Origin: a virus
Taxonomy: Duplodnaviria > Heunggongvirae > Uroviricota > Caudoviricetes
IMG/VR virus record: IMGVR_UViG_2703718777_000029
Location: 1-16,352 of that record
DNA: 16,352 bases
Strand: one strand, 5' to 3'
Part shown: positions 1,473-16,352 of the stretch, in pieces
How positions within the stretch are numbered: the first letter of the stretch is position 1
Layout of the letters: each line of letters begins with the position of its first letter
The notes under the pieces: model-generated
Database searches by the model: none
What the model was told of the DNA's origin: nothing
What the model saw: the letters and a program-made list of their open reading frames with translations, nothing else
Translations under genes and position numbers: made by a program

Positions 1473-2468
1473 TTACGCCAGTACGCCTATTGCCAGCGCA
1501 CGATCGATAAAACGAAATATCAGCTCCAGCTGGGAGCCATACTTCTCTTCAAATGTCACGGTATCCGCATGCAGCTCGTCGTGATGCTTTCTGCACAAAG
1601 GCAACACAAAGAGATCATGCGCTTTTGTACCCATTCCACCCTGACCGTGGCCTATCAGGTGGTGGGGATCATCAGCGGGCTTTCCACAACATGCGCACGG
1701 CTGCGTCTTAACCCAGCGCGTGTACTTTTCATTAACCCAGCGGCGACGTTTGGGGCGTAACATAAAAGACTCCGGCGACTCCGGATCCACTTTCAGCGCC
1801 AGCACCTTTTTCGCTTTATCCTGGATGATGCTGGTGGCAGGAACCGAAGGCACAAGGTCACTTTCCCGGGTGACAGACGGCACAACAGGCTTCGGTAATC
1901 TCAGTGCCTTACGGGCTGCACTTTCCGGTAAGGCATCCGCCAGGTCATTACGAATCAGCCACCAGCACAGTTCCGGCATTGTCACAACGTGACTGTCATC
2001 AAAACCGAGATCCCGACGCACAACAGACAACACCCAGCGGGCACAGTTATCCGTTGCCATTGATTCCAGCCGTTCCGTGAACTGATCGCGCAGCTGGTTA
2101 TCGCAGTGCCAGCACAGACGGATTGCACCCGGAGCGTGTCGCATTGTGGTCATGTTCTCGCTGTGCCAGTCGGAATGAAGCCACTGGCAGCCTTTTTCAC
2201 GAAGTAACCAGCTTTCAAGACATTCCACGCCACCAGCACGACGGATCACTGCCTCATTGCGGAACACGGCCCGAACGGAAGGATCATCCGCCAGCGGTTG
2301 TGATGCCGCCGGAACGGCACCACTAGCGAAAGATGAATAACGTTCCGGCTCAGGCTCCAGCAGGACACGCCCCTGCATAAACAGGGGCATCAGCTCTGAA
2401 CCTGGCCTGAACAATACGATCCCCATACGCGGGGCAATTTCAGGGGTCAGTAGTGCTCTCACGGTCAC
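1473..2468 (-). CDS. DUF968 (YdfU-like) protein with C-terminal Cys/His-rich HNH-like region, 331 aa from a GTG start
   Basis: C-terminus CACCGKPADDPHHLIGHGQGGMGTKAHDLFVLPLCRKHHDELHAD. The frame opens with GTG at 2468, one nt after the KilA-N stop; the first ATG is at 2426 with no clear SD, so the start is uncertain. Confidence 0.6.
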   Translation of the reverse strand: MTVRALLTPEIAPRMGIVLFRPGSELMPLFMQGRVLLEPEPERYSSFASGAVPAASQPLADDPSVRAVFRNEAVIRRAGGVECLESWLLREKGCQWLHSDWHSENMTTMRHAPGAIRLCWHCDNQLRDQFTERLESMATDNCARWVLSVVRRDLGFDDSHVVTMPELCWWLIRNDLADALPESAARKALRLPKPVVPSVTRESDLVPSVPATSIIQDKAKKVLALKVDPESPESFMLRPKRRRWVNEKYTRWVKTQPCACCGKPADDPHHLIGHGQGGMGTKAHDLFVLPLCRKHHDELHADTVTFEEKYGSQLELIFRFIDRALAIGVLA

Positions 2469-2469
2469 C

Positions 2470-3285
2470 TCAATGAACGGTATCGAGCAGCTTTAACAGC
2501 TCAGGGAATCGGGATTCGAAGAAATGCGGCTGCGTCTCGCGCGGATTTGCGGGACTGGTGATGTTCTTGCCGAACATGCAGCCTTTCGCCGTCAGCGACC
2601 AGAATTTTTTGATGTTGTTAATCCCGGTACGGCTGTATCGTTCGCGCTGCTCGACGATCCCCAGCTTCACCATCTGGTGATATGCCTGATTAGCCGTCAG
2701 GCGGATACCATACTGCTTCAGCAGTGCACTCAGCGACAGCGTAGGGCGGCTTGAACCATCTGGCGCATCAGCAGGTGCATCAATGGCATAGATCGGCATA
2801 AGTTCAGGAAGACCAGCTACCTTTGATAATTTCTGGTATGCACCAAGTTTCGAGGAGTTTGACAGATTTAGAGTCTTTGCTGCTGATTCAAGCAGAATGA
2901 CCCCGGATTTAATTTTGTCGGATGTGGTTTCTTCTGGTGATGAATTATGAAGCGCATCAAAAGTACGTATCACTTTTAAGCTGAATGCCGGGCTGATCCA
3001 CATTGCATATGCATAGACCAGCTCTTTACAGACATACGTCCCACCATTGCGCCCCTGAATGGTGATGACAGGAATACTACGGGAATCTCCCGTAGTTTCT
3101 TCTTCCAGTAATTCCACAAGAGCCTTCGTTTCAGGACGACGCATAAACTCGTGAACTTCCAGCGAACGGGAGGAGCGATTCTCACCAGCGGCAAGAAGAG
3201 CAGCTTTCTGAAGGTCGTTAAGACAGTAGTTAGATTCAAAGTACTGGCGCACAGAAACGCCATCAATTACAAGCAACTGATTCAT
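2470..3285 (-). CDS. KilA-N domain protein (putative antirepressor-like), 271 aa
   Basis: MNQLLVIDGVSVRQYFESNYCLNDL...ITIQGRNGGTYVCKELVYAYAMWISPAFSLKVIRTFD is a KilA-N-type N-terminal domain. ATG at 3285 is preceded by GGAGAA; the track ORF extends to 3381 but that extension lacks an RBS. Confidence 0.7.
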   Translation of the reverse strand: MNQLLVIDGVSVRQYFESNYCLNDLQKAALLAAGENRSSRSLEVHEFMRRPETKALVELLEEETTGDSRSIPVITIQGRNGGTYVCKELVYAYAMWISPAFSLKVIRTFDALHNSSPEETTSDKIKSGVILLESAAKTLNLSNSSKLGAYQKLSKVAGLPELMPIYAIDAPADAPDGSSRPTLSLSALLKQYGIRLTANQAYHQMVKLGIVEQRERYSRTGINNIKKFWSLTAKGCMFGKNITSPANPRETQPHFFESRFPELLKLLDTVH

Positions 3286-3371
3286 TGGTTTCTCCACAAA
3301 TTTCGGGACTGCACTCCCTTTTCGTTGATGCAAGATGAACTTACTGCGATTTTTAATAGTTATCAAGGATA

Positions 3372-3391
3372 CACTGTTCATAAATACAGTA
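3372..3391. promoter_or_regulatory. Candidate LexA (SOS) box upstream of the KilA-N gene
   Basis: cACTGTtcataaatACAGta contains the palindromic CTGT-N8-ACAG core (3374-3389) with an AT-rich centre; about 16 of 20 positions match the E. coli LexA consensus TACTGTATATATATACAGTA. Located in the 150-bp gap between rusA and the KilA-N gene. Confidence 0.5.
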
Positions 3392-3436
3392 TCTTTAACG
3401 AGGTAATACCCAAATTTAGGGTGTTGCTCAATTCCG

Positions 3437-3832
3437 TTACCGAGTTGCTAATTTGCAACTCGCTTTTTCGTACTTACTGATAGTGATCTCGACCTTCCCT
3501 TCCGGGATAACCGGTCCCCACTCCACCAGCATTCTTTTCACCTGACTGTCGTCTTCCCACACACCCGCGTGGGTCAGGGCGTCAAACAGCGCCTTGTTAT
3601 AGTTGTCCAGATCGCGGATCCGGTTATCCGGAGGAAACAACACGATCTCCACTGATGCAGGTGCCGACGTTGGTTTTGGCAGACGACGTAACTGCTCAAC
3701 TATTGCTGCACACGCCGCGCTCTGAAATTTTCGCCCCGCCTCGCTTATCAGGCTCTTACCAGCAAATGCCACTTTGTTGGGGTGTCGCCAGTACATGTTC
3801 ACGCTGGGCGGAAAAGGCAGTATTAGCTTCAT
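3437..3832 (-). CDS. rusA: Holliday junction resolvase RusA, 131 aa
   Basis: MKLILPFPPSVNMYWRH... and RDLDNYNKALFDALTHAGVWEDDSQV match the RusA signature (compare E. coli RusA LPWPPSNNRYYRH / [26 protein letters not shown]). Start ATG overlaps the Dam stop (ATGA at 3829-3832). Confidence 0.9.
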   Translation of the reverse strand: MKLILPFPPSVNMYWRHPNKVAFAGKSLISEAGRKFQSAACAAIVEQLRRLPKPTSAPASVEIVLFPPDNRIRDLDNYNKALFDALTHAGVWEDDSQVKRMLVEWGPVIPEGKVEITISKYEKASCKLATR

Positions 3833-4482
3833 GCCACCATCTCCCTGACCAGTTTTTCCGCCTGCTGGCGAACCTGCGCCAGAAATGCCTCACCACATGC
3901 CTCAAGTTCATCGCGCCCGATGTAGCTGATTGCCGGTCCCTTCCAGGTCTTGTCGAAAACAGCAATAGCACCAGCGAAGAAAGCACCTGTTGGCACCTGC
4001 TTTTCGTCTTTCGGGATAAACCAGGCAGGCAGTTCAAAACCAATACGCCCGCGAATAAAAGCAATATGATCTGCATCTTCCGGCCACCACACTTCGCTGG
4101 TGGCAGCTTTGATCAGGAAAACATAGCGCCCGCCTTTATCACGCATGGCACTGGCATGCTTCATGATGTAACGCATGCCGGTGATGTATTGCCCCTCATG
4201 CTGACTGGCGCGGCTGTACGGGGGATTGCCAAAGGCAGCACCTTTAAGCTCCGCAAGACGTTCTGACCAGTCATGCGCCAGCGCGTTGTCTTCCGCCGTG
4301 TAATACGCGGCACATTTGGCGTTATCACCGTCAGTGAACAGATCCAGAACAAACGGACCAAACAAGGTGTTAATTCCCCAGAAAATGTTGTCCGGCGTGC
4401 GCCACTGATCGCCCACTTCCTTCAGTTCATGGGCTGGTTTGTTCCGCAGTTCTACCAGCGCCTGGCAATATTTATTACTCAT
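3829..4482 (-). CDS. Phage DNA N6-adenine methyltransferase (Dam family), 217 aa
   Basis: NPPY catalytic motif (FGNPPYS) typical of N6-adenine methyltransferases; overall resemblance to phage orphan Dam methylases. Start ATG overlaps the stop of the upstream small ORF. Confidence 0.8.
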   Translation of the reverse strand: MSNKYCQALVELRNKPAHELKEVGDQWRTPDNIFWGINTLFGPFVLDLFTDGDNAKCAAYYTAEDNALAHDWSERLAELKGAAFGNPPYSRASQHEGQYITGMRYIMKHASAMRDKGGRYVFLIKAATSEVWWPEDADHIAFIRGRIGFELPAWFIPKDEKQVPTGAFFAGAIAVFDKTWKGPAISYIGRDELEACGEAFLAQVRQQAEKLVREMVA

Positions 4483-4574
4483 TAAGCCCCCACGTAAAAA
4501 GCATCCGCAATGTCTCCGGAAGTACAGCCCGGATGGGCTTCAATGAATTTCTGAACGTCATTTAACAGACTCAT
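4482..4574 (-). CDS. Unannotated small ORF, 30 aa (MSLLNDVQKFIEAHPGCTSGDIADAFYVGA), between the replication and Dam genes
   Basis: Hand-translated from the sequence. ATG at 4574 lies 2 nt after the O-like stop, preceded by AGGGGG; its TAA overlaps the Dam ATG (TAATG at 4480-4484). Below the ORF-track length cutoff. Confidence 0.4.
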   Translation of the reverse strand: MSLLNDVQKFIEAHPGCTSGDIADAFYVGA

Positions 4575-4576
4575 GA

Positions 4577-5407
4577 TCACCCCCTGAATCCTGCCGGGAT
4601 CTGGCTGTAGTCCACGTTGTCGTAACTGGCTTTGAAGTACGGGTCCTCACGTCCGGCTACAGATACCGCAGGAACTTCCCAGGATTCTTCGAAATGACGA
4701 TCCGGACCAAAGAACGTGACAGCCTGTTTCACAAATTGTGTGCCGCTGTTACCCATCGCAGATACCCAGCCCGCGTAGCGTTTCACACCTTCCAGCATGG
4801 TTTCGGGTTTTACCCCCTCATTCAAACGGGCTTTCCAGGCTTTGAAGGCTGCAGATTTTGAATTGCCACCAGCACGTTTGGGGTATGCCAGCCATGCCTG
4901 CTCAAACTCCGGAGAGTATTCCGGTCGGTTTGAACGAACTCGCACAGACTCATCAGCAGATGCACCAACAGCTATTGGTTCATTGACTGGTTCTTTGACT
5001 GGTTCTTTGACTGGTTCAAAAGAGTGACTGGTTCTGGGTGAATCTCCTGCACTACCCCCTGGTGCAACTCCTGCACTACCTGGTGAATTTGCTGCACCAG
5101 ATAGTGAATTATTTGCACTACCCCCTAGTGAATCTCCTGCACCATCCAGATGAAGGAGATAGATATTACTTGAGTTACCTTTTTCACCTTTCCGGGTGAC
5201 TTTTTTTACCAGCCCGGACTCACAAAGGGCCGCAATATGATTCATCACAGAACGTTTGCTAATCTCGCACTGGTCAGCAATATGCTGGTAGCTGGGCCAG
5301 CACTCGCCCTGATCGCTGGCATTATCAGCCAGCTTAATCAGAACCAGTTTTCGCAATGGATTTCCCACTCGAATTTTCATCGCTTTAACCATCAGCTCCA
5401 TACTCAT
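4577..5407 (-). CDS. Replication initiator (O-like) with N-terminal winged-HTH domain and internal repeat linker, 276 aa
   Basis: N-terminal LRKLVLIKLADNASDQGECWPSYQHIADQCEISKRSVMNHIAALCESGLVKK resembles phage replication-initiator HTH domains. Central low-complexity G/S/A-rich linker and EPVKEPVKEPV are encoded by DNA repeats. ATG at 5407 has a strong GGAGGTG RBS and overlaps the upstream stop (ATGA); the track start at 5446 is a TTG. Confidence 0.65.
   Translation of the reverse strand: MSMELMVKAMKIRVGNPLRKLVLIKLADNASDQGECWPSYQHIADQCEISKRSVMNHIAALCESGLVKKVTRKGEKGNSSNIYLLHLDGAGDSLGGSANNSLSGAANSPGSAGVAPGGSAGDSPRTSHSFEPVKEPVKEPVNEPIAVGASADESVRVRSNRPEYSPEFEQAWLAYPKRAGGNSKSAAFKAWKARLNEGVKPETMLEGVKRYAGWVSAMGNSGTQFVKQAVTFFGPDRHFEESWEVPAVSVAGREDPYFKASYDNVDYSQIPAGFRG
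4983..5145. repeat. Iteron-like direct repeats inside the O-like gene (candidate origin of replication)
   Basis: Three tandem copies of TTTGACTGGTTC (4982-5017) plus a fourth TGACTGGTTC (5025-5034), then about five degenerate ~24-bp repeats of the type GAATCTCCTGCACTACCCCCTGGT (5039-5145), followed by an AT-rich stretch. Analogous to lambda ori iterons embedded in O. Confidence 0.5.
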
Positions 5408-5628
5408 GCAGCACCTCCGAGATGCTTCATGTTTTTTCCGGAGCAAAAGGCTATAAGCGGCATACTGATGCGGTAATTACGGCCCAGCGGTTCACAAATC
5501 ACCTTCTGACATTCACGGTCAACCAGGCTAACACGTAGAACATGCCCTGCAGGTGTGGTGTACCACTGACCGGGGCGAGGACAACGGAAAGTCTGATTGG
5601 TAAACCGTTTGAAAATATTCCGGATCAT
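5404..5628 (-). CDS. Hypothetical small protein, 74 aa
   Basis: ATG at 5628 preceded by AAGGGGG and overlapping the Rha stop (ATGA); its stop overlaps the O-like ATG (ATGA). No recognisable domain. Confidence 0.5.
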   Translation of the reverse strand: MIRNIFKRFTNQTFRCPRPGQWYTTPAGHVLRVSLVDRECQKVICEPLGRNYRISMPLIAFCSGKNMKHLGGAA

Positions 5629-6773
5629 TTACGCCCCCTTACCTCTGAAGAGTTCAGCGACGAATGAATAAGACGGGCAAGAAATGCCGCATCGTTAATT
5701 CGGTCATACAGACTTACAGCCAGCGGTGATTCAACTTTTGCCAACATAGGATAAAGCTGCTGCAGCCAGACCTGATGAATTGATGAAATGTAGGAATAGA
5801 GAACGTTGGCGTTATGTGCAACGTCGCTCGGTACAGAGGGCTTTGAAAGCTGTTTCTCCATCTGGTTAAAGGCATTGATGTATGCCTCTTTGAACTGGGC
5901 AGCACGTTTACCAGTGAAACCCATAGCAAGAAACGCAAAGCCGTCGCGGGTTATTTGATAGCAAGGTAGTTTGCGGCCTGTGCAATCGGTGTAATCACTC
6001 ACCGAAAAATTGCGGGCAGTGAATGATGCGGAACATTCAAGCGTGCGGATCTTTTTCAGTACATCGTCATGACGTTTGGAGAAGAAGTTGGCAACAGCCA
6101 GGGATGAAGTAACAGCCTGACCATCAACGATGGCAATTTCAGGTTGAGTGAGGGTTGGGATCGTAGCCATGATGGCAGCCTCCGTTGACTGTGGAAAACT
6201 TCCACCACCGGAGCTGCGAAACTCACTGGTGGCAGACTGAACAGGGTTCGCAGTACCGGCGTCAACGGAGACCGGCGAGCCTTTCGGCTCCCCTGCCCAG
6301 CCCACCATAATTCTGGCGTGCGTGAGCGCGGACGATAAAAAAGACGCTGGCGCGTCGTATATCGCCGTTGACAATTCCGGGCTGCGACCCCCGGCACCCG
6401 CTTTATAAGGTGCCTGAACAGTGTAACGTCCCGGAATTCCAGAATCAATATGCTGGTGGTCCTTCACACTCAACAAAATCACGCCTGAATTTCCACAAAG
6501 GACTAAAGCACTCATGTGGGTAGTCTTTGCGAAGATAGATAACGCGCTGTGTTTCTGGCTCCCAACGAATAACATGAACATAAAGTCCTCTTCCGTCACG
6601 AAACCAGCGGTTAAGTTCCTGCACAACTCGCCCCCCACAGTCAGGTAAAGTTCTCTGTGGTTACTTACAGCCAGGTGATTTGGTAATCTGCATTCATGCC
6701 GTAACAACAGGTGTTCAGAGACGCTGACCACCAGCTGTTGCGACAAACGGTTATTTGCCGTTAAACTGTTCAT
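5625..6773 (-). CDS. Rha-family phage regulatory protein; Rha domain begins at the internal ATG at 6170 (181 aa), while the open frame continues upstream to 6773 (382 aa)
   Basis: MATIPTLTQPEIAIVDGQAVTSSLAVANFFSKRHDDVLKKIRTLE... is a typical Rha N-terminus, and the ATG at 6170 has GGAGG 8 nt upstream. The frame stays open for 201 further codons upstream to an ATG at 6773 that overlaps the CII-like stop (ATGA). The 6171-6773 portion has no recognised domain. Confidence 0.65.
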   Translation of the reverse strand: MNSLTANNRLSQQLVVSVSEHLLLRHECRLPNHLAVSNHRELYLTVGGELCRNLTAGFVTEEDFMFMLFVGSQKHSALSIFAKTTHMSALVLCGNSGVILLSVKDHQHIDSGIPGRYTVQAPYKAGAGGRSPELSTAIYDAPASFLSSALTHARIMVGWAGEPKGSPVSVDAGTANPVQSATSEFRSSGGGSFPQSTEAAIMATIPTLTQPEIAIVDGQAVTSSLAVANFFSKRHDDVLKKIRTLECSASFTARNFSVSDYTDCTGRKLPCYQITRDGFAFLAMGFTGKRAAQFKEAYINAFNQMEKQLSKPSVPSDVAHNANVLYSYISSIHQVWLQQLYPMLAKVESPLAVSLYDRINDAAFLARLIHSSLNSSEVRGRK

Positions 6774-8444: not shown

Positions 8445-8602
8445 TGTTTTTAGAGTTGTGGTGAATGCGCAGGCTGATGCGCGAAAGACATTGCAGCTAT
8501 TACGGAAAAGAGCTGTTCGGCGGGGCAATTAAATGCCCGTGAGAGTCTGAAATAACCGCAAGCCGGAGATCAGCACCGATCACCACAACAGCCACTGCTT
8601 TG

Positions 8603-8650
8603 GCGGTACCAGTTTGTACACTTGCTTCCGGCTGGTACCGCTCTTTTTAC
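8603..8650 (+). terminator. Terminator-like hairpin in the early-left leader (possible attenuator or end of a short leader RNA)
   Basis: Perfect 10-bp inverted repeat GCGGTACCAG (8603-8612) / CTGGTACCGC (8632-8641) with a 19-nt loop, followed by TCTTTTTAC. The sequence CGCTCTTTTTA spanning the 3' arm resembles a boxA element. Confidence 0.4.
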
Positions 8651-8785
8651 AAAACAGAGAAGAGCATCACCGGACGACGGGCTCATAACCCAATCCACCC
8701 GGGCGGCTGCCACCGCAGGTGTTCTTCTCTGTTTTGTGGAGAAACCAACCGACCTTGCAGGGTCGATATGATGAGGAGCAGCAAA

Positions 8786-9148
8786 ATGGCTAGCGAACGC
8801 AGTACTGATGTGCAGGCATTTATCGGGGAGTTGGACGGCGGCGTATTTGAAACCAAAATCGGCGCTGTTCTCAGTGAAGTCGCTTCCGGTGTGATGAACA
8901 CGAAAACCAAAGGTAAGGTCTCGCTCAACCTGGAAATCGAACCGTTTGATGAGAACCGTGTGAAAATCAAACACAAACTCTCATATGTTCGCCCGACTAA
9001 CCGCGGGAAAATTTCCGAAGAAGACACCACCGAAACGCCGATGTATGTCAATCGCGGTGGTCGCCTGACTATTCTGCAGGAAGACCAGGGACAATTACTG
9101 ACTCTTGCCGGTGAACCTGACGGAAAACTACGCGCAGCAGGTCATTAA
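8786..9148 (+). CDS. YfdP-like early protein, 120 aa
   Basis: ATG at 8786 preceded by AGGAG at 7-nt spacing; the upstream in-frame extension to 8600 in the track has no RBS and overlaps the leader hairpin. Size and position match CPS-53 YfdP as remembered. Confidence 0.55.
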   Translation: MASERSTDVQAFIGELDGGVFETKIGAVLSEVASGVMNTKTKGKVSLNLEIEPFDENRVKIKHKLSYVRPTNRGKISEEDTTETPMYVNRGGRLTILQEDQGQLLTLAGEPDGKLRAAGH

Positions 9149-9213
9149 TATCGTTCTTAATTAACTGATTATTTATCTCATCACTGAATATCTTTATATA
9201 GTGAGGACTTATT

Positions 9214-10038
9214 ATGTCTCAGAACTTAGACGCAACCGCAATTAATCAAATCCATGCCCTTATTTCTGCTCAGGGTGTTAATGAAATTATCAGTAAGATT
9301 GGTGCCGATGCTGTGGCATTGCCTGAGAATTTCCGCATTCATGATCTGGAAAAATTTAATTTAAATCGCTTCCGTTTCCGTGGTGCGCTTTCCACTGCCA
9401 GCATCGATGACTTTACCCGTTATTCTAAAGATCTTGCAGATGAAGGCACCCGCTGCTTTATCGATGCCGATAATATGCGTGCCGTCAGTGTGCTTAACCT
9501 GGGTACTATTGATGAACCAGGTCACGCAGATAACACCGCCACTCTCAAGCTAAAAAAGACAGCACCGTTTTCTGCTCTGTTGTCTGTTAATGGCGAGCGT
9601 AACTCCCAGAAGTCACTGGCAGAATGGATTGAAGACTGGGCCGACTACCTTGTGGGCTTTGATGCTAATGGTGACGCTATTCAGGCAACAAAAGCGGCTG
9701 CGGCTGTCCGTAAAATCACGATTGAAGCAAACCAGACCGCTGATTTTGAAGATAATGACTTCAGCGGCAAACGCTCCCTGATGGAGTCTGTCGAAGCGAA
9801 GACCAAAGATATTATGCCAGTGGCATTTGAATTTAAATGCGTTCCGTTTGAAGGTCTGAAAGAACGTCCATTTAAATTACGCCTCAGCATTATCACTGGC
9901 GATCGTCCTGTACTGGTTCTGCGCATTATTCAGCTGGAAGCAGTGCAGGAAGAAATGGCTAACGAATTTCGTGATCTGCTTGTTGAGAAATTCAAAGACA
10001 GCAAAGTAGAAACCTTTATTGGTACTTTCACCGCCTGA
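9214..10038 (+). CDS. DUF2303 (YfdQ-like) protein, 274 aa
   Basis: Length and overall character match E. coli CPS-53 YfdQ as remembered; GTGAGGA RBS 6 nt upstream of the ATG. Confidence 0.6.
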
Positions 10039-10050
10039 TTTCATTACTGC

Positions 10051-10072
10051 AAATGCCCCTGCGGGGGCATTT
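10051..10072 (+). terminator. Hairpin between the yfdQ-like and yfdR-like genes (weak terminator or attenuator candidate)
   Basis: AAATGCCCC-tgcg-GGGGCATTT, a 9-bp stem with a 4-nt loop; only a short T tract follows. Confidence 0.3.
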
Positions 10073-10165
10073 ATGGAAACGTAATTAACTCAATAATCGC
10101 CGGATGGTGAGGGCTTCCTTTTACCAGAATTCAGCGCGGTGCAGCGCATATACGTGGAGAACAAA

Positions 10166-10702
10166 ATGTCATTTATTAAAACTTTTTCCGGTAAGCATTT
10201 TTATTATGACAGGATAAATAAAGACGACATCGATATTAACGATATCGCGGTTTCCCTTTCAAATATCTGTCGCTTTGCCGGTCATCTTTCGCACTTCTAC
10301 AGCGTCGCCCAACATGCGGTTCTTTGCAGCCAGCTGGTACCGCAGGAATTTGCTTTTGAAGCGTTAATGCATGATGCAACAGAAGCGTATTGCCAGGACA
10401 TCCCCGCTCCACTGAAACGCCTTCTTCCTGACTATAAACAGATGGAAGAAAAAATAGACGCCGTAATCCGTGAGAAATACGGGTTACCCCCGGTTATGAG
10501 TACGCCCGTGAAATATGCCGATCTCATCATGCTGGCAACCGAACGCCGCGATCTCGGGCTTGATGATGGCTCTTTCTGGCCTGTACTGGAAGGCATCCCG
10601 GCAACAGAGATGTTCAACGTGATTCCACTGGCACCGGGCCATGCCTACGGGATGTTTATGGAACGTTTTAACGAGTTATCGGAGTTACGCAAATGCGCAT
10701 GA
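10166..10702 (+). CDS. HD-domain phosphohydrolase (YfdR-like 5'-deoxynucleotidase), 178 aa
   Basis: HD-domain His and His-Asp motifs (SVAQHAVLCSQ...LMHDATEAY). ATG at 10166 preceded by GGAG; the track GTG at 10139 has no RBS. Length matches E. coli YfdR. Confidence 0.7.
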   Translation: MSFIKTFSGKHFYYDRINKDDIDINDIAVSLSNICRFAGHLSHFYSVAQHAVLCSQLVPQEFAFEALMHDATEAYCQDIPAPLKRLLPDYKQMEEKIDAVIREKYGLPPVMSTPVKYADLIMLATERRDLGLDDGSFWPVLEGIPATEMFNVIPLAPGHAYGMFMERFNELSELRKCA

Positions 10703-11043
10703 ATGTTTTCGAAATGGAAGGGTTTCTTCGCGGGAAATGTGTACCGCGAGATCTGAAAGTGAATGAAACAAATGCTGAGTATCTGGTGCGTAAATTCGAT
10801 GAAGTACGTGCTGAGGCTCGCAACGAGGGTATTAACTATACCGCAAGCCGCCTTGCTGCTGCGTTCAATCACGGATTTATCAATAAGTCTTTACGTGAAG
10901 TTTTCGACGTTACACGCATGATTCTGTCAGCGAAAGATGAGTTGGCTAATGAACCGCACCCGATTGATGGTCTGTCCGGTGAATATGCGGAGAAATCCCT
11001 TGAAGAATGGGCGGAACAGATTCGCAAAGGAGGCAACCAGTGA
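10693..11043 (+). CDS. Hypothetical early protein, 116 aa
   Basis: ATG at 10693 with GGAG 8 nt upstream; overlaps the yfdR-like stop by 10 nt. No recognised domain. Confidence 0.5.
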   Translation: MRMNVFEMEGFLRGKCVPRDLKVNETNAEYLVRKFDEVRAEARNEGINYTASRLAAAFNHGFINKSLREVFDVTRMILSAKDELANEPHPIDGLSGEYAEKSLEEWAEQIRKGGNQ

Positions 11044-13350: not shown

Positions 13351-13409
13351 AAGTACATAGTATTAAAGTTTTTTATGAATGTCTAAATGTATCTTATTCA
13401 GAGGTGATA

Positions 13410-14957
13410 ATGGGTGCCAATGGTTTACTAGCAGTCTTCGCCATACTTATTGCTTGGTATACTCTCTTAACGGATGAGAGACGTGTTGATTTAAGGTTAC
13501 GCATATCTAAATTTAATTTAGTATTCATTATCTTTTTTATATCAACAATATTAACAGTTATATATTCTAAGGTTTTGCTAAGTGTTTTCCCGATAAAACC
13601 GATCCCTTGGATACTCGGTTTTAACGAAGATACATTGGCTTTTACTTGTCTTTGTATCATAATTATATTTTTTGGAATTAAAGTACAGGGCAAAATACTA
13701 CCAAAATCAAACCTTACCTGTTGGATCAGTGTTTCAGAAACATATCTGCGCGCAAAAAAAATAGAACAACTAGGATATCTTTTTGATAAATATCACGAGC
13801 AGCTATTCAATATAATCAGCAATAAAAAATGGTATGTTCGCGTACATAATTACTTAGCCCCTTCATTATCTCCCATTGAAATGGATGAAGAGAAGGTAAA
13901 AAAATTACGATTCAAAAAAGTCAGGAGATTTCTGTCAAAGTTTTTCCCTTATGAAGACAAAAGACAAAATGATATTCAATTAAATATATCCAATCTTCTG
14001 AAATCAAAGGTTTTTTCACATTATCTAATTGATACTTACCCTCACGTAGCTATGAAGGCCACCTGCTTACAGCTTAGATATAATTGTGAGTATAATACAA
14101 ATTTCTTTACGTATTTAATATCTAACCCAAACAGCATTATGTATAGGGAGTTACGAGACAACCAAAATCGTTCATATACAGGGGAGTATGCACTCGACGA
14201 AAGTAATGCCTTGCTTAATTTTTATTTAAATGATATTCGCATGGCGATAGATTTAGAAATATGGAAACCTGTGGGTAATTATGTCATTAGCTACATAAAA
14301 AAACAAAAAGGGAGTTCTTGCTTTTACAATCATCCAGATAATTACTATTCAAGTAGTGATGAGCGTTGGGAATGCCCACTCTTCGTTGGATTGACGTTTT
14401 TCGATGTTATGGTATCTACAGCAATATTCAAACGCTCAAAAAACAATATGTGGCTCATGTATTATCGTTGTTTCCTAAAGGAAATACTTGAGAGCTATGA
14501 AAAATCTAGCAGCATAGATGTAAATAGAGAGTTCCCCATGCGATTTGATTATTTAATATATGAGCTAATCAGCCGTTGTAATATATGGGCAGGAGCAACA
14601 GAACACCTCAATTATGATAACTGGACAACAGAAGATAAAGAGCAATCTCCAGAGTTCTTTGCCTCTAAAACCTTGGGGGAAATGATGTATCTGATTATTA
14701 CTTCAGAAAAAATGCATAACAATCAAAAGACATATCTTTTAGAAATCATTATTAAAAGAATGGACTCTCTTGATAAAAAGAAGAAATCTGCTTACTCCAA
14801 GGAAATCTTCAACAATCTTATCCGAGCATTCTCCCCTGCTTCCATTGATATAAATGCAGTAAATAAATTACGGCAACTTTATACAGGTGTTGATCATGTT
14901 CTAAAAAACAAAAATTCAACTTTTGAAGTTGAACTATCAAAATATCCTGACCAATAA
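13410..14957 (+). CDS. Hypothetical membrane-anchored protein, 515 aa (three N-terminal TM helices plus ~420-aa soluble domain); candidate defence or superinfection-exclusion moron
   Basis: ATG at 13410 preceded by GAGGTG; the track start at 13404 is a GTG. Hydrophobic segments LLAVFAILIAWYTLL, LVFIIFFISTILTVIYSKVLLSVF and LAFTCLCIIIIFFGI. The gene and its flanks are much more AT-rich than the rest of the window. No known domain recognised. Confidence 0.7.
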   Translation: MGANGLLAVFAILIAWYTLLTDERRVDLRLRISKFNLVFIIFFISTILTVIYSKVLLSVFPIKPIPWILGFNEDTLAFTCLCIIIIFFGIKVQGKILPKSNLTCWISVSETYLRAKKIEQLGYLFDKYHEQLFNIISNKKWYVRVHNYLAPSLSPIEMDEEKVKKLRFKKVRRFLSKFFPYEDKRQNDIQLNISNLLKSKVFSHYLIDTYPHVAMKATCLQLRYNCEYNTNFFTYLISNPNSIMYRELRDNQNRSYTGEYALDESNALLNFYLNDIRMAIDLEIWKPVGNYVISYIKKQKGSSCFYNHPDNYYSSSDERWECPLFVGLTFFDVMVSTAIFKRSKNNMWLMYYRCFLKEILESYEKSSSIDVNREFPMRFDYLIYELISRCNIWAGATEHLNYDNWTTEDKEQSPEFFASKTLGEMMYLIITSEKMHNNQKTYLLEIIIKRMDSLDKKKKSAYSKEIFNNLIRAFSPASIDINAVNKLRQLYTGVDHVLKNKNSTFEVELSKYPDQ

Positions 14958-15128: not shown

Positions 15129-16352
15129 TCAATTGGAGCATGAGTTAGTACAAGTAACAATCGATTCAACTCTCTCCCACCATGCCTGGTAGGCTTTACG
15201 CTGTTCTTCTAGATAATCGCTCTTATCATAAACTTGCCATACCCCTGGCAGTTTATGACCTAGCATTATTTCTGCAATATGAGGCTCAGTAAGATCAGAA
15301 AAGTTTGTTCGTGCTGTTCGTCTCAAATCATGAAGAGACCAATGAGGGAATTGATACCCCAAACGCCGCCATGCGTACTGCATTAAATTGTAAGGCAGCG
15401 ACTGCAATGATGTCCGACCAACGGGTTCCCTGCTTCCTTCCTTAGTAAAAAGCATATCGGAACCATTGTTCATAGAGATAGCGTACTTTATAAGCTCTTC
15501 AACCGGTTCAATAATGGGTCGCTTTAGCGGTTCGCCTGTTATCTCCCCAGTCTTATGTCGTTCTGGTGGTACAGTCCATACTTTATTAATGAAATCAAAA
15601 TCGTCCACCCGGGCAGTAATTAGCTCTGAACTACGGCAACCAAAATGCAGCAATAGTTTAATGAAGGCCCGGTATTTAGGAACCATTCGAGAACCATCGA
15701 TCGCAGCATAAAGGATTTTAATTTCATCATGTGTCAGAAACCGTTTCTTCTGACCTTTACGGATATCCATATCTTTACCCGTGATATCCGACAGCGGGCG
15801 AGTTTCAATGAGCTTTCTCTTATACGCCCAGACATGGGCCTGCTTTGCGTTAATTAGCAATCGGTCTGCTATTGCTGGAGTCTTAGTGCTAAGAGGCTCC
15901 AGGACCTCTAACCAATCATGCAATGTAGCTACATCGTGAGGGATACTCCCGATTTTAGAGAACAGGTGCAGTTCAAATGAGCGGAGTATCTGCTCAGAAC
16001 CTTTTTTATTTTTTACACAATATGCTGCATACCAGGCACGGATCACAGACTCCACCGTCATGGCTTCAGTAGCTTTGCGTTTTTCTACCTGCTTGACCAA
16101 TCGTGGATTGCGGTTTGACTCGAGTTCACCACGAAGACGGATAACTTCTTCTCTGGCCTCTTTTAATCCAGTTGCCGGGTAAGTTCCGATATCAAGACGC
16201 TCACCTTTCCCTGCCCATTGATAACGATATTGGAATACTACGCGACCTTTCGGTGATACTCTGACAGACAGACCATCACGATCGGATTTAACCAAAACCT
16301 TATCACGTTCCTTTCCAACGACTGAACGCAACCACGCATCAGACAGCGCCAT
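15129..16352 (-). CDS. int: Tyrosine recombinase / phage integrase (P4-type), 407 aa
   Basis: N-terminus MALSDAWLRS...GLSVRVSPKGRVVFQYRYQ matches P4-like integrase arm-binding domains. C-terminal catalytic signature includes HDLRRT (HxxR), GHKL...VYDKSDY (His and Tyr nucleophile). The ATG sits at the last three bases of the window, so promoter and att lie outside. Confidence 0.9.
   Translation of the reverse strand: MALSDAWLRSVVGKERDKVLVKSDRDGLSVRVSPKGRVVFQYRYQWAGKGERLDIGTYPATGLKEAREEVIRLRGELESNRNPRLVKQVEKRKATEAMTVESVIRAWYAAYCVKNKKGSEQILRSFELHLFSKIGSIPHDVATLHDWLEVLEPLSTKTPAIADRLLINAKQAHVWAYKRKLIETRPLSDITGKDMDIRKGQKKRFLTHDEIKILYAAIDGSRMVPKYRAFIKLLLHFGCRSSELITARVDDFDFINKVWTVPPERHKTGEITGEPLKRPIIEPVEELIKYAISMNNGSDMLFTKEGSREPVGRTSLQSLPYNLMQYAWRRLGYQFPHWSLHDLRRTARTNFSDLTEPHIAEIMLGHKLPGVWQVYDKSDYLEEQRKAYQAWWERVESIVTCTNSCSN

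Follow-up and report, generated by a model that had tools for sequence, protein, structure and literature searches.

A 30-codon open reading frame between the replication-initiator-like and dam genes of an Escherichia coli prophage is very probably an in-frame deletion allele of yfdN

The 30-codon open reading frame (ORF) that occupies positions 4482-4574 (minus strand) of the analysed window, i.e., of the whole 16,352-nt stretch of viral DNA (Caudoviricetes; IMG/VR record IMGVR_UViG_2703718777_000029), is very probably (at roughly 93% by our estimate) a truncated allele of the prophage gene yfdN. This gene remnant is best explained by one illegitimate-recombination event in which 396 nt were deleted. 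Such a deletion would have joined yfdN codons 1-28, in frame, to the final four codons plus the stop, and, with the start and stop regions intact, the remnant would keep the Shine-Dalgarno (SD) sequence of the parent, its upstream spacing, the TAATG overlap with the next gene and the SD of dam. As read from the sequence, the ORF owes its exact fit in the gap and its coupled boundaries to the 164-codon parent gene, because the deletion left both gene ends untouched. We found no evidence contradicting this origin.

A 501-nt query around the ORF matched thousands of E. coli prophage loci. In most records of a second megablast search, the homology, which runs from the replication gene through the start of the ORF, ends exactly at window position 4497, where full-length yfdN continues, and the homology to intact yfdN picks up again for the last 14-15 nt. 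Intact YfdN is a PerC family transcriptional regulator of 164 aa (counted from GTG) that reads V(I/S)MSLLNDVQKFIEAHPGCTSGDIADAF, followed by AGYSRQ...EEWYLSGN and by the terminal YVGA. The 5' remnant (4497-4580, minus strand; 84 nt) corresponds to yfdN codons 1-28 from the GTG, with three differences from the intact allele of STEC435 (L003), all of them synonymous. The 3' remnant (4482-4496, minus strand) consists of the last four yfdN codons (YVGA) and the TAA, and its last 14 nt, TACGTGGGGGCTTA, together with the dam ATG, are identical to intact yfdN in a base-by-base comparison with the same allele. At the deletion junction (4496/4497, minus strand), 396 nt (132 codons, YfdN aa 29-160) are absent in frame, with a microhomology of 1 nt (T). 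The ORF is identified as an allele of the yfdN locus by its homology at both gene ends and its position between the HTH/replication gene and dam, and as a pseudogene or remnant by the loss of the PerC domain and by the longer intact homologue that relatives have in this place.

One question is whether the tight fit of the ORF between its neighbors is in itself an indication of a gene. The initial annotation had taken the exact filling of the interval, with coupled boundaries on both sides, as an argument for a real micro-protein rather than a chance frame. The features that it described are all present in the sequence: the ORF extends from an ATG at 4574-4572 to a TAA at 4484-4482 (translation MSLLNDVQKFIEAHPGCTSGDIADAFYVGA); an AGGGGG Shine-Dalgarno-like sequence (4580-4585, minus strand) precedes the ATG by 5 nt; the TGA (4579-4577) of the upstream, O-like gene is separated from the ATG by 2 nt; and the last A of the ORF stop is the first base of the dam ATG (4482-4480). 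The minus strand, on which all genes of this region lie, reads here ...TTC AGGGGG TGA TC ATG AGT CTG ... GCT TTT TAC GTG GGG GCT TAATG AGT AAT AAA... The combination of TGA-N2-ATG upstream, TAATG downstream and a dam SD (GGGGG, 4491-4487) inside the upstream cistron would be that of a translationally coupled operon junction. However, these boundaries lose their value as evidence for a micro-protein, since intact 164-aa yfdN has identical ones, along with both SD sequences (AGGGGG has the same bases in the STEC435 allele) and the final four codons. The length of 30 codons is by itself unremarkable, because a mechanical ORF list contains 63 ORFs of at least 20 aa in the same 4 kb. What makes the ORF non-random, to judge by the alignments, is its homology to yfdN and not its tight fit. 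The earlier view therefore holds in that the frame is not a chance one, but not in that it is a purpose-built micro-protein gene, the ORF being in all probability an in-frame 396-nt deletion allele.

The start codon can also be considered in this light. An in-frame GTG at 4580, overlapping the upstream stop (GTGA), is an alternative start that yields 32 codons, and it is the start chosen by PGAP. In intact alleles, the dinucleotide that separates the TGA from the ATG varies freely, and the upstream GTG is replaced by GTA in 5 of 123 copies, whereas the ATG is invariant. The ATG is therefore probably the real start for both the short and the intact forms. On the plus strand, two ORFs overlap the interval, at 4439-4546 and at 4273-4485; with no support for either, we regard both as chance antisense frames.

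The domain content of the parent protein defines what the deletion removed. In intact YfdN, the PerC domain (PF06069; 37.9 bits, cut-off 22.6) covers aa 100-151, a stretch encoded entirely by the deleted 396 nt. A second region, aa ~6-68, weakly resembles MarR/winged-helix regulators (phrog_1687, E=6e-5; NCBIfam BilQ, below cut-off); the deletion cuts it at residue 28, so that about its first third is kept. A PDB sequence search with intact YfdN gave no match even at E<=10. The 32-aa remnant has no Pfam or NCBIfam match, the PerC family included, and its PHROG matches are confined to positions 15-40 of 172 in phrog_1324 ('transcriptional activator') and 1-26 of 109 in phrog_23071. On these profile searches, the remnant is an allele of the yfdN locus and not to be filed as a PerC-family protein. 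Having lost the PerC domain and two thirds of the winged-helix-like region at the N-terminus, the predicted 30-aa peptide cannot act as a PerC-type regulator.

The genes on both sides are those expected for this locus. The upstream, replication-initiator-like gene (HTH_36/DnaD_N-like; 4577-5446, minus strand) ends with the TGA at 4579-4577 and matches Pfam HTH_36 (E=7.9e-12) and DnaD_N (E=3.9e-5). Its mechanical ORF starts with TTG at 5446, whereas the PGAP homologues begin further in, and relatives are labeled 'helix-turn-helix domain-containing protein' or 'replication protein O'. The downstream gene is dam, encoding a phage N-6-adenine methyltransferase (3829-4482, minus strand; Pfam Dam, E=9.7e-46; TIGR01712, E=1.5e-76). 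In intact prophages, dam lies directly downstream of yfdN, and the order HTH/replication gene - yfdN - dam is found both in STEC435 and in CPS-53 of E. coli K-12 (L002), where dam is represented by the truncated yfdM. Within the replication-initiator-like protein, a tandem 12-nt repeat (4976-5017, minus strand) encodes EPVK/EPVN (GAACCAGTCAAA twice plus GAACCAGTCAAT), and its copy number varies among related prophages (EPVKEPVNEP or just EPVNEP). The last 20-40 codons of the replication gene (4580-4652, minus strand; ...REDPYFKASYDNVDYSQIPAGFRG) are common to otherwise unrelated types of replication protein that precede yfdN, and in many records, the megablast homology starts at window position 4652. 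This segment has the appearance of a lambdoid-phage module boundary, a recombination joint situated within a coding region.

The ORF had been described as unannotated, which the public databases contradict. In NZ_CP027591, RefSeq/PGAP annotates the equivalent of window positions 4580-4497 as a pseudogene ("hypothetical protein; incomplete; missing C-terminus"), and the same pseudogene annotation is found in NZ_AP042506, the genome closest to the whole window (99.8% identity). In GenBank, the exact 30- and 32-aa products are present as 'hypothetical protein' in E. coli and, by source names only, in Salmonella. The feature is already known as a RefSeq-flagged remnant of a known gene and represents no new kind of gene or mechanism. 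A literature search with the peptide sequence found no paper. Phage cdtI (L185, AB285204.1) also carries the deletion allele. In this phage, the start of the dam CDS (1554-2252) is annotated 45 nt upstream of the conserved ATG and overlaps the yfdN remnant, and the RefSeq copy calls the dam CDS 'phosphoadenosine phosphosulfate reductase'; both the start and the product name are probably annotation artefacts.

Another important point is how widespread the deletion allele is and how many times it has arisen. Of 5426 complete E. coli genomes, 116 contained matches, at 122 places in total, to a 60-nt query centered on the junction and used with an E-value limit that excludes half-matches; an equivalent 60-nt query for the intact left boundary matched at 2982 places in 2426 genomes of the same set. 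Thus, the deletion is present at about 4% of the yfdN loci and the intact form at about 96%; many of the carriers are STEC or bovine isolates. Counts at '>=80% coverage' were discarded as counts of the deletion allele, since a match to an intact locus may be joined from two pieces, and since one query lay mostly upstream of the junction. In IMG/VR, the exact 23-nt junction was found in 60 contigs and a version with a point change in one more (L184), giving 61; with a pattern that allowed length variation of +/-15 nt, all 57 matches had the same length (109-nt spacing). The identity of the junction and the lack of length variation indicate that one deletion event stands behind all copies. Among the GTDB species-representative genomes, the junction is absent, and the conserved 5' coding segment was found in two E. 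coli records only.

The deletion alleles fall into eight DNA haplotypes and are located behind at least three to four unrelated replication-protein bodies that share only their last 20-40 residues; in one deletion-allele record (H85), the preceding gene is annotated "phage replication protein O". Such unrelated bodies, along with variant codons shared with intact alleles, indicate that the deletion allele has moved among mosaic lambdoid prophages, putatively by homologous recombination in the conserved flanks. As for the window itself, it is identical to strain 2014C-3011 (NZ_CP027591.1) over 4300-4800; in a wider comparison, the two agree at about 98% over 1477-5568 and over 8581-10801, and the remainder of the window matches this strain little or not at all. 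There is a 24-nt length difference between the two sequences between 4800 and 5568, which may lie in the EPVK/EPVN repeat. The window is 99.8% identical end to end to OkiPb01680. Patchy similarity of this kind is typical of prophage mosaicism.

Is the short product itself maintained by selection? According to the initial annotation, conservation of the peptide in related prophages, including its dN/dS, would speak for a micro-protein, and stops or frameshifts in the interval would speak against it. We analyzed 62 copies of the deletion allele other than that of the window's own type genome. Neither stops nor frameshifts were found in them, and codons 1-26 show five synonymous and one non-synonymous (D/E) variant codons and a crude pN/pS of 0.05; for the same codons in 115 intact alleles, pN/pS is about 0.1. 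However, each of these variants is also present among the intact alleles, which leaves the deletion lineage with no private variant in codons 1-26. Because every variant is shared, the low pN/pS is, as far as such comparisons go, inherited polymorphism of the intact gene and is uninformative on selection on the short form. The lack of stops and frameshifts is likewise uninformative, because the deletion lineage has gained essentially no mutations of its own. The sole change that apparently post-dates the deletion is A30D (GCT>GAT), which is non-synonymous and present in two copies. In intact yfdN, protein conservation is highest over the first 26 codons, with a crude pN/pS of about 0.09 compared with 0.43 in the deleted part. 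The N-terminal conservation, the in-frame deletion and the lack of stops or frameshifts are compatible with a retained role; the same three observations are equally expected if the sequence is simply inherited, the allele is young and the deletion kept the frame by a one-in-three chance.

Against this background, the possibility can be weighed that the 30-aa peptide is a functional micro-protein, for example, a YfdN interaction segment acting on intact YfdN or on Pch-type regulators of other prophages. A good SD and start, uninterrupted frames in all 62 copies, the strong conservation of the N-terminal 26 codons in intact alleles and the persistence of the allele in 116 complete genomes, spread across backgrounds, are in line with it; nevertheless, we give it a very small chance, as the conservation of codons 1-26 consists of shared polymorphism, the only private change alters the protein, the fragment breaks off inside a winged-helix-like region of roughly 60 aa and has no PerC domain, and the literature search gave no mention of the peptide. 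Deletion and insertion are formally symmetrical, and for this reason alone it could be imagined that the short ORF is ancestral and that long yfdN arose by the insertion of a segment with the PerC domain; nothing specific favors this direction. The long form is 25 times commoner, and the junction falls within aa 6-68, which match a MarR-like profile as one unit; moreover, the short form always has the same length and lacks private variants in codons 1-26, and the PHROG families model the long form. An ancestral short form is thus practically out of the question, and the deletion origin is preferred over it.

The relation of the remnant to dam deserves separate consideration. The remnant is probably co-transcribed with the replication gene and dam in an early operon and would then probably be translated into the 30-aa peptide, which is most likely inert. 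The most plausible effect of this translation would be that ribosomes still reach the UAAUG, so that the ancestral coupling to dam would be preserved. Neither a promoter-like nor a terminator-like site was found on the minus strand between the replication gene and dam; the scan of 3700-5600 gave no promoter-like site and one terminator-like site, located on the opposite strand (5184-5199) and within chance expectation. Rfam gave no match at the ORF locus. One may go further and suppose that the remnant has been selected as a short spacer cistron, translation through which, and not the peptide, delivers ribosomes to dam and opens the dam ribosome binding site (RBS), in which case only an in-frame deletion could survive. 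The deletion did preserve the frame and the UAAUG overlap, the absence of an internal promoter-like site fits such a dependence, and in the deleted allele, folding of 83 nt (-23.4 kcal/mol) predicts a hairpin (4548-4530 with 4477-4494) that masks the SD and AUG of dam, while the same dam RBS region of the intact allele has a weak fold (-14.6 kcal/mol). The hairpin, however, falls short of significance (z = -1.6; an equally good fold in 14 of 200 shuffles), and the 161-nt context across the ORF folds no better than shuffles (z = +0.45). In addition, dam has its own GGGGG SD, and a single deletion event would be in frame by chance in one case out of three. We consider selection for such a spacer unlikely. 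A structured RNA element is not claimed, given the marginal 83-nt fold and a 161-nt fold that is no better than shuffles. More generally, there appears to be quite a small chance that the remnant is non-neutral, either because its translation would be needed for dam expression or because the conserved N-terminal 26 residues would modulate intact YfdN/Pch-type regulators of co-resident STEC prophages; in the former version, the deletion would, according to the predicted folding, have moved a segment complementary to the dam RBS to within 45 nt of it.

Several other features were observed elsewhere in the window. Two Rfam matches above the gathering score, C4 antisense RNA (RF01695, 78.8 bits; 6225-6312, minus strand) and the Hfq-binding RNA isrK (RF01394, 56.9 bits; 6337-6413, minus strand), lie in the 5' part of a mechanical 382-aa ORF (5625-6773) that contains the domains Phage_ASH (aa 117-212) and Phage_pRha (aa 222-307). 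The location of a C4 RNA upstream of an antirepressor-like gene resembles the layout of P1/P7-type immunity regions, and in the closest genome, PGAP labels the Rha gene a pseudogene missing its N-terminus. A 517-aa ORF (13404-14957, plus strand) adjoins the tyrosine integrase gene (15129-16352, minus strand); it has no Pfam match at E<=0.01, is annotated in the closest genome only as a hypothetical protein (WP_047661322.1) and could be a cargo or moron gene at the prophage end.

The closest known relative of the remnant is yfdN itself, as present in CPS-53 of E. coli K-12 and in lambdoid orthologues, with which it shares the locus, the SD, the start, the first 28 codons (with the synonymous differences from the STEC435 allele), the YVGA, the stop and the TAATG. 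Unlike yfdN, it is devoid of codons 29-160, including the whole PerC domain, and is thus a derivative allele and not a working member of the family. YfdN has been described as the K-12 homologue of PerC, and its gene was deleted to give a clean background for testing the Pch proteins of EHEC (PMC5931665). The pch genes are prophage-borne regulators of ler and the LEE, and pchE is a regulator of csgD/curli (PMC6265319). PerC of EPEC and PchA-E of the EHEC prophages are comparable to the parent gene yfdN, the Pch genes being prophage-borne like it; the remnant, in contrast, carries no PerC-homologous sequence, and no regulation of ler or csgD can be inferred for it. Decay of yfdN also takes other forms: the gene is interrupted by an IS in phage Stx2a_WGPS2, and premature stops are present in 3 of ~114 IMG/VR copies (products of 77, 111 and 113 residues). 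In K-12, the neighbors of yfdN are pseudogenes, the HTH gene being truncated N-terminally and yfdM C-terminally. Compared with the other decayed yfdN copies, the remnant described here is in frame and has kept both translational boundaries, and it therefore reads as a tidy mini-gene.

This case calls for caution in the interpretation of short ORFs: one that fills the space between two genes to the base and has coupled boundaries on both sides looks designed, and an in-frame internal deletion of an ordinary gene gives the same picture. The remnant itself, in our reading, represents a defined and moderately common loss allele of a PerC-family prophage regulator and could be of interest for studies of the Pch/PerC network.
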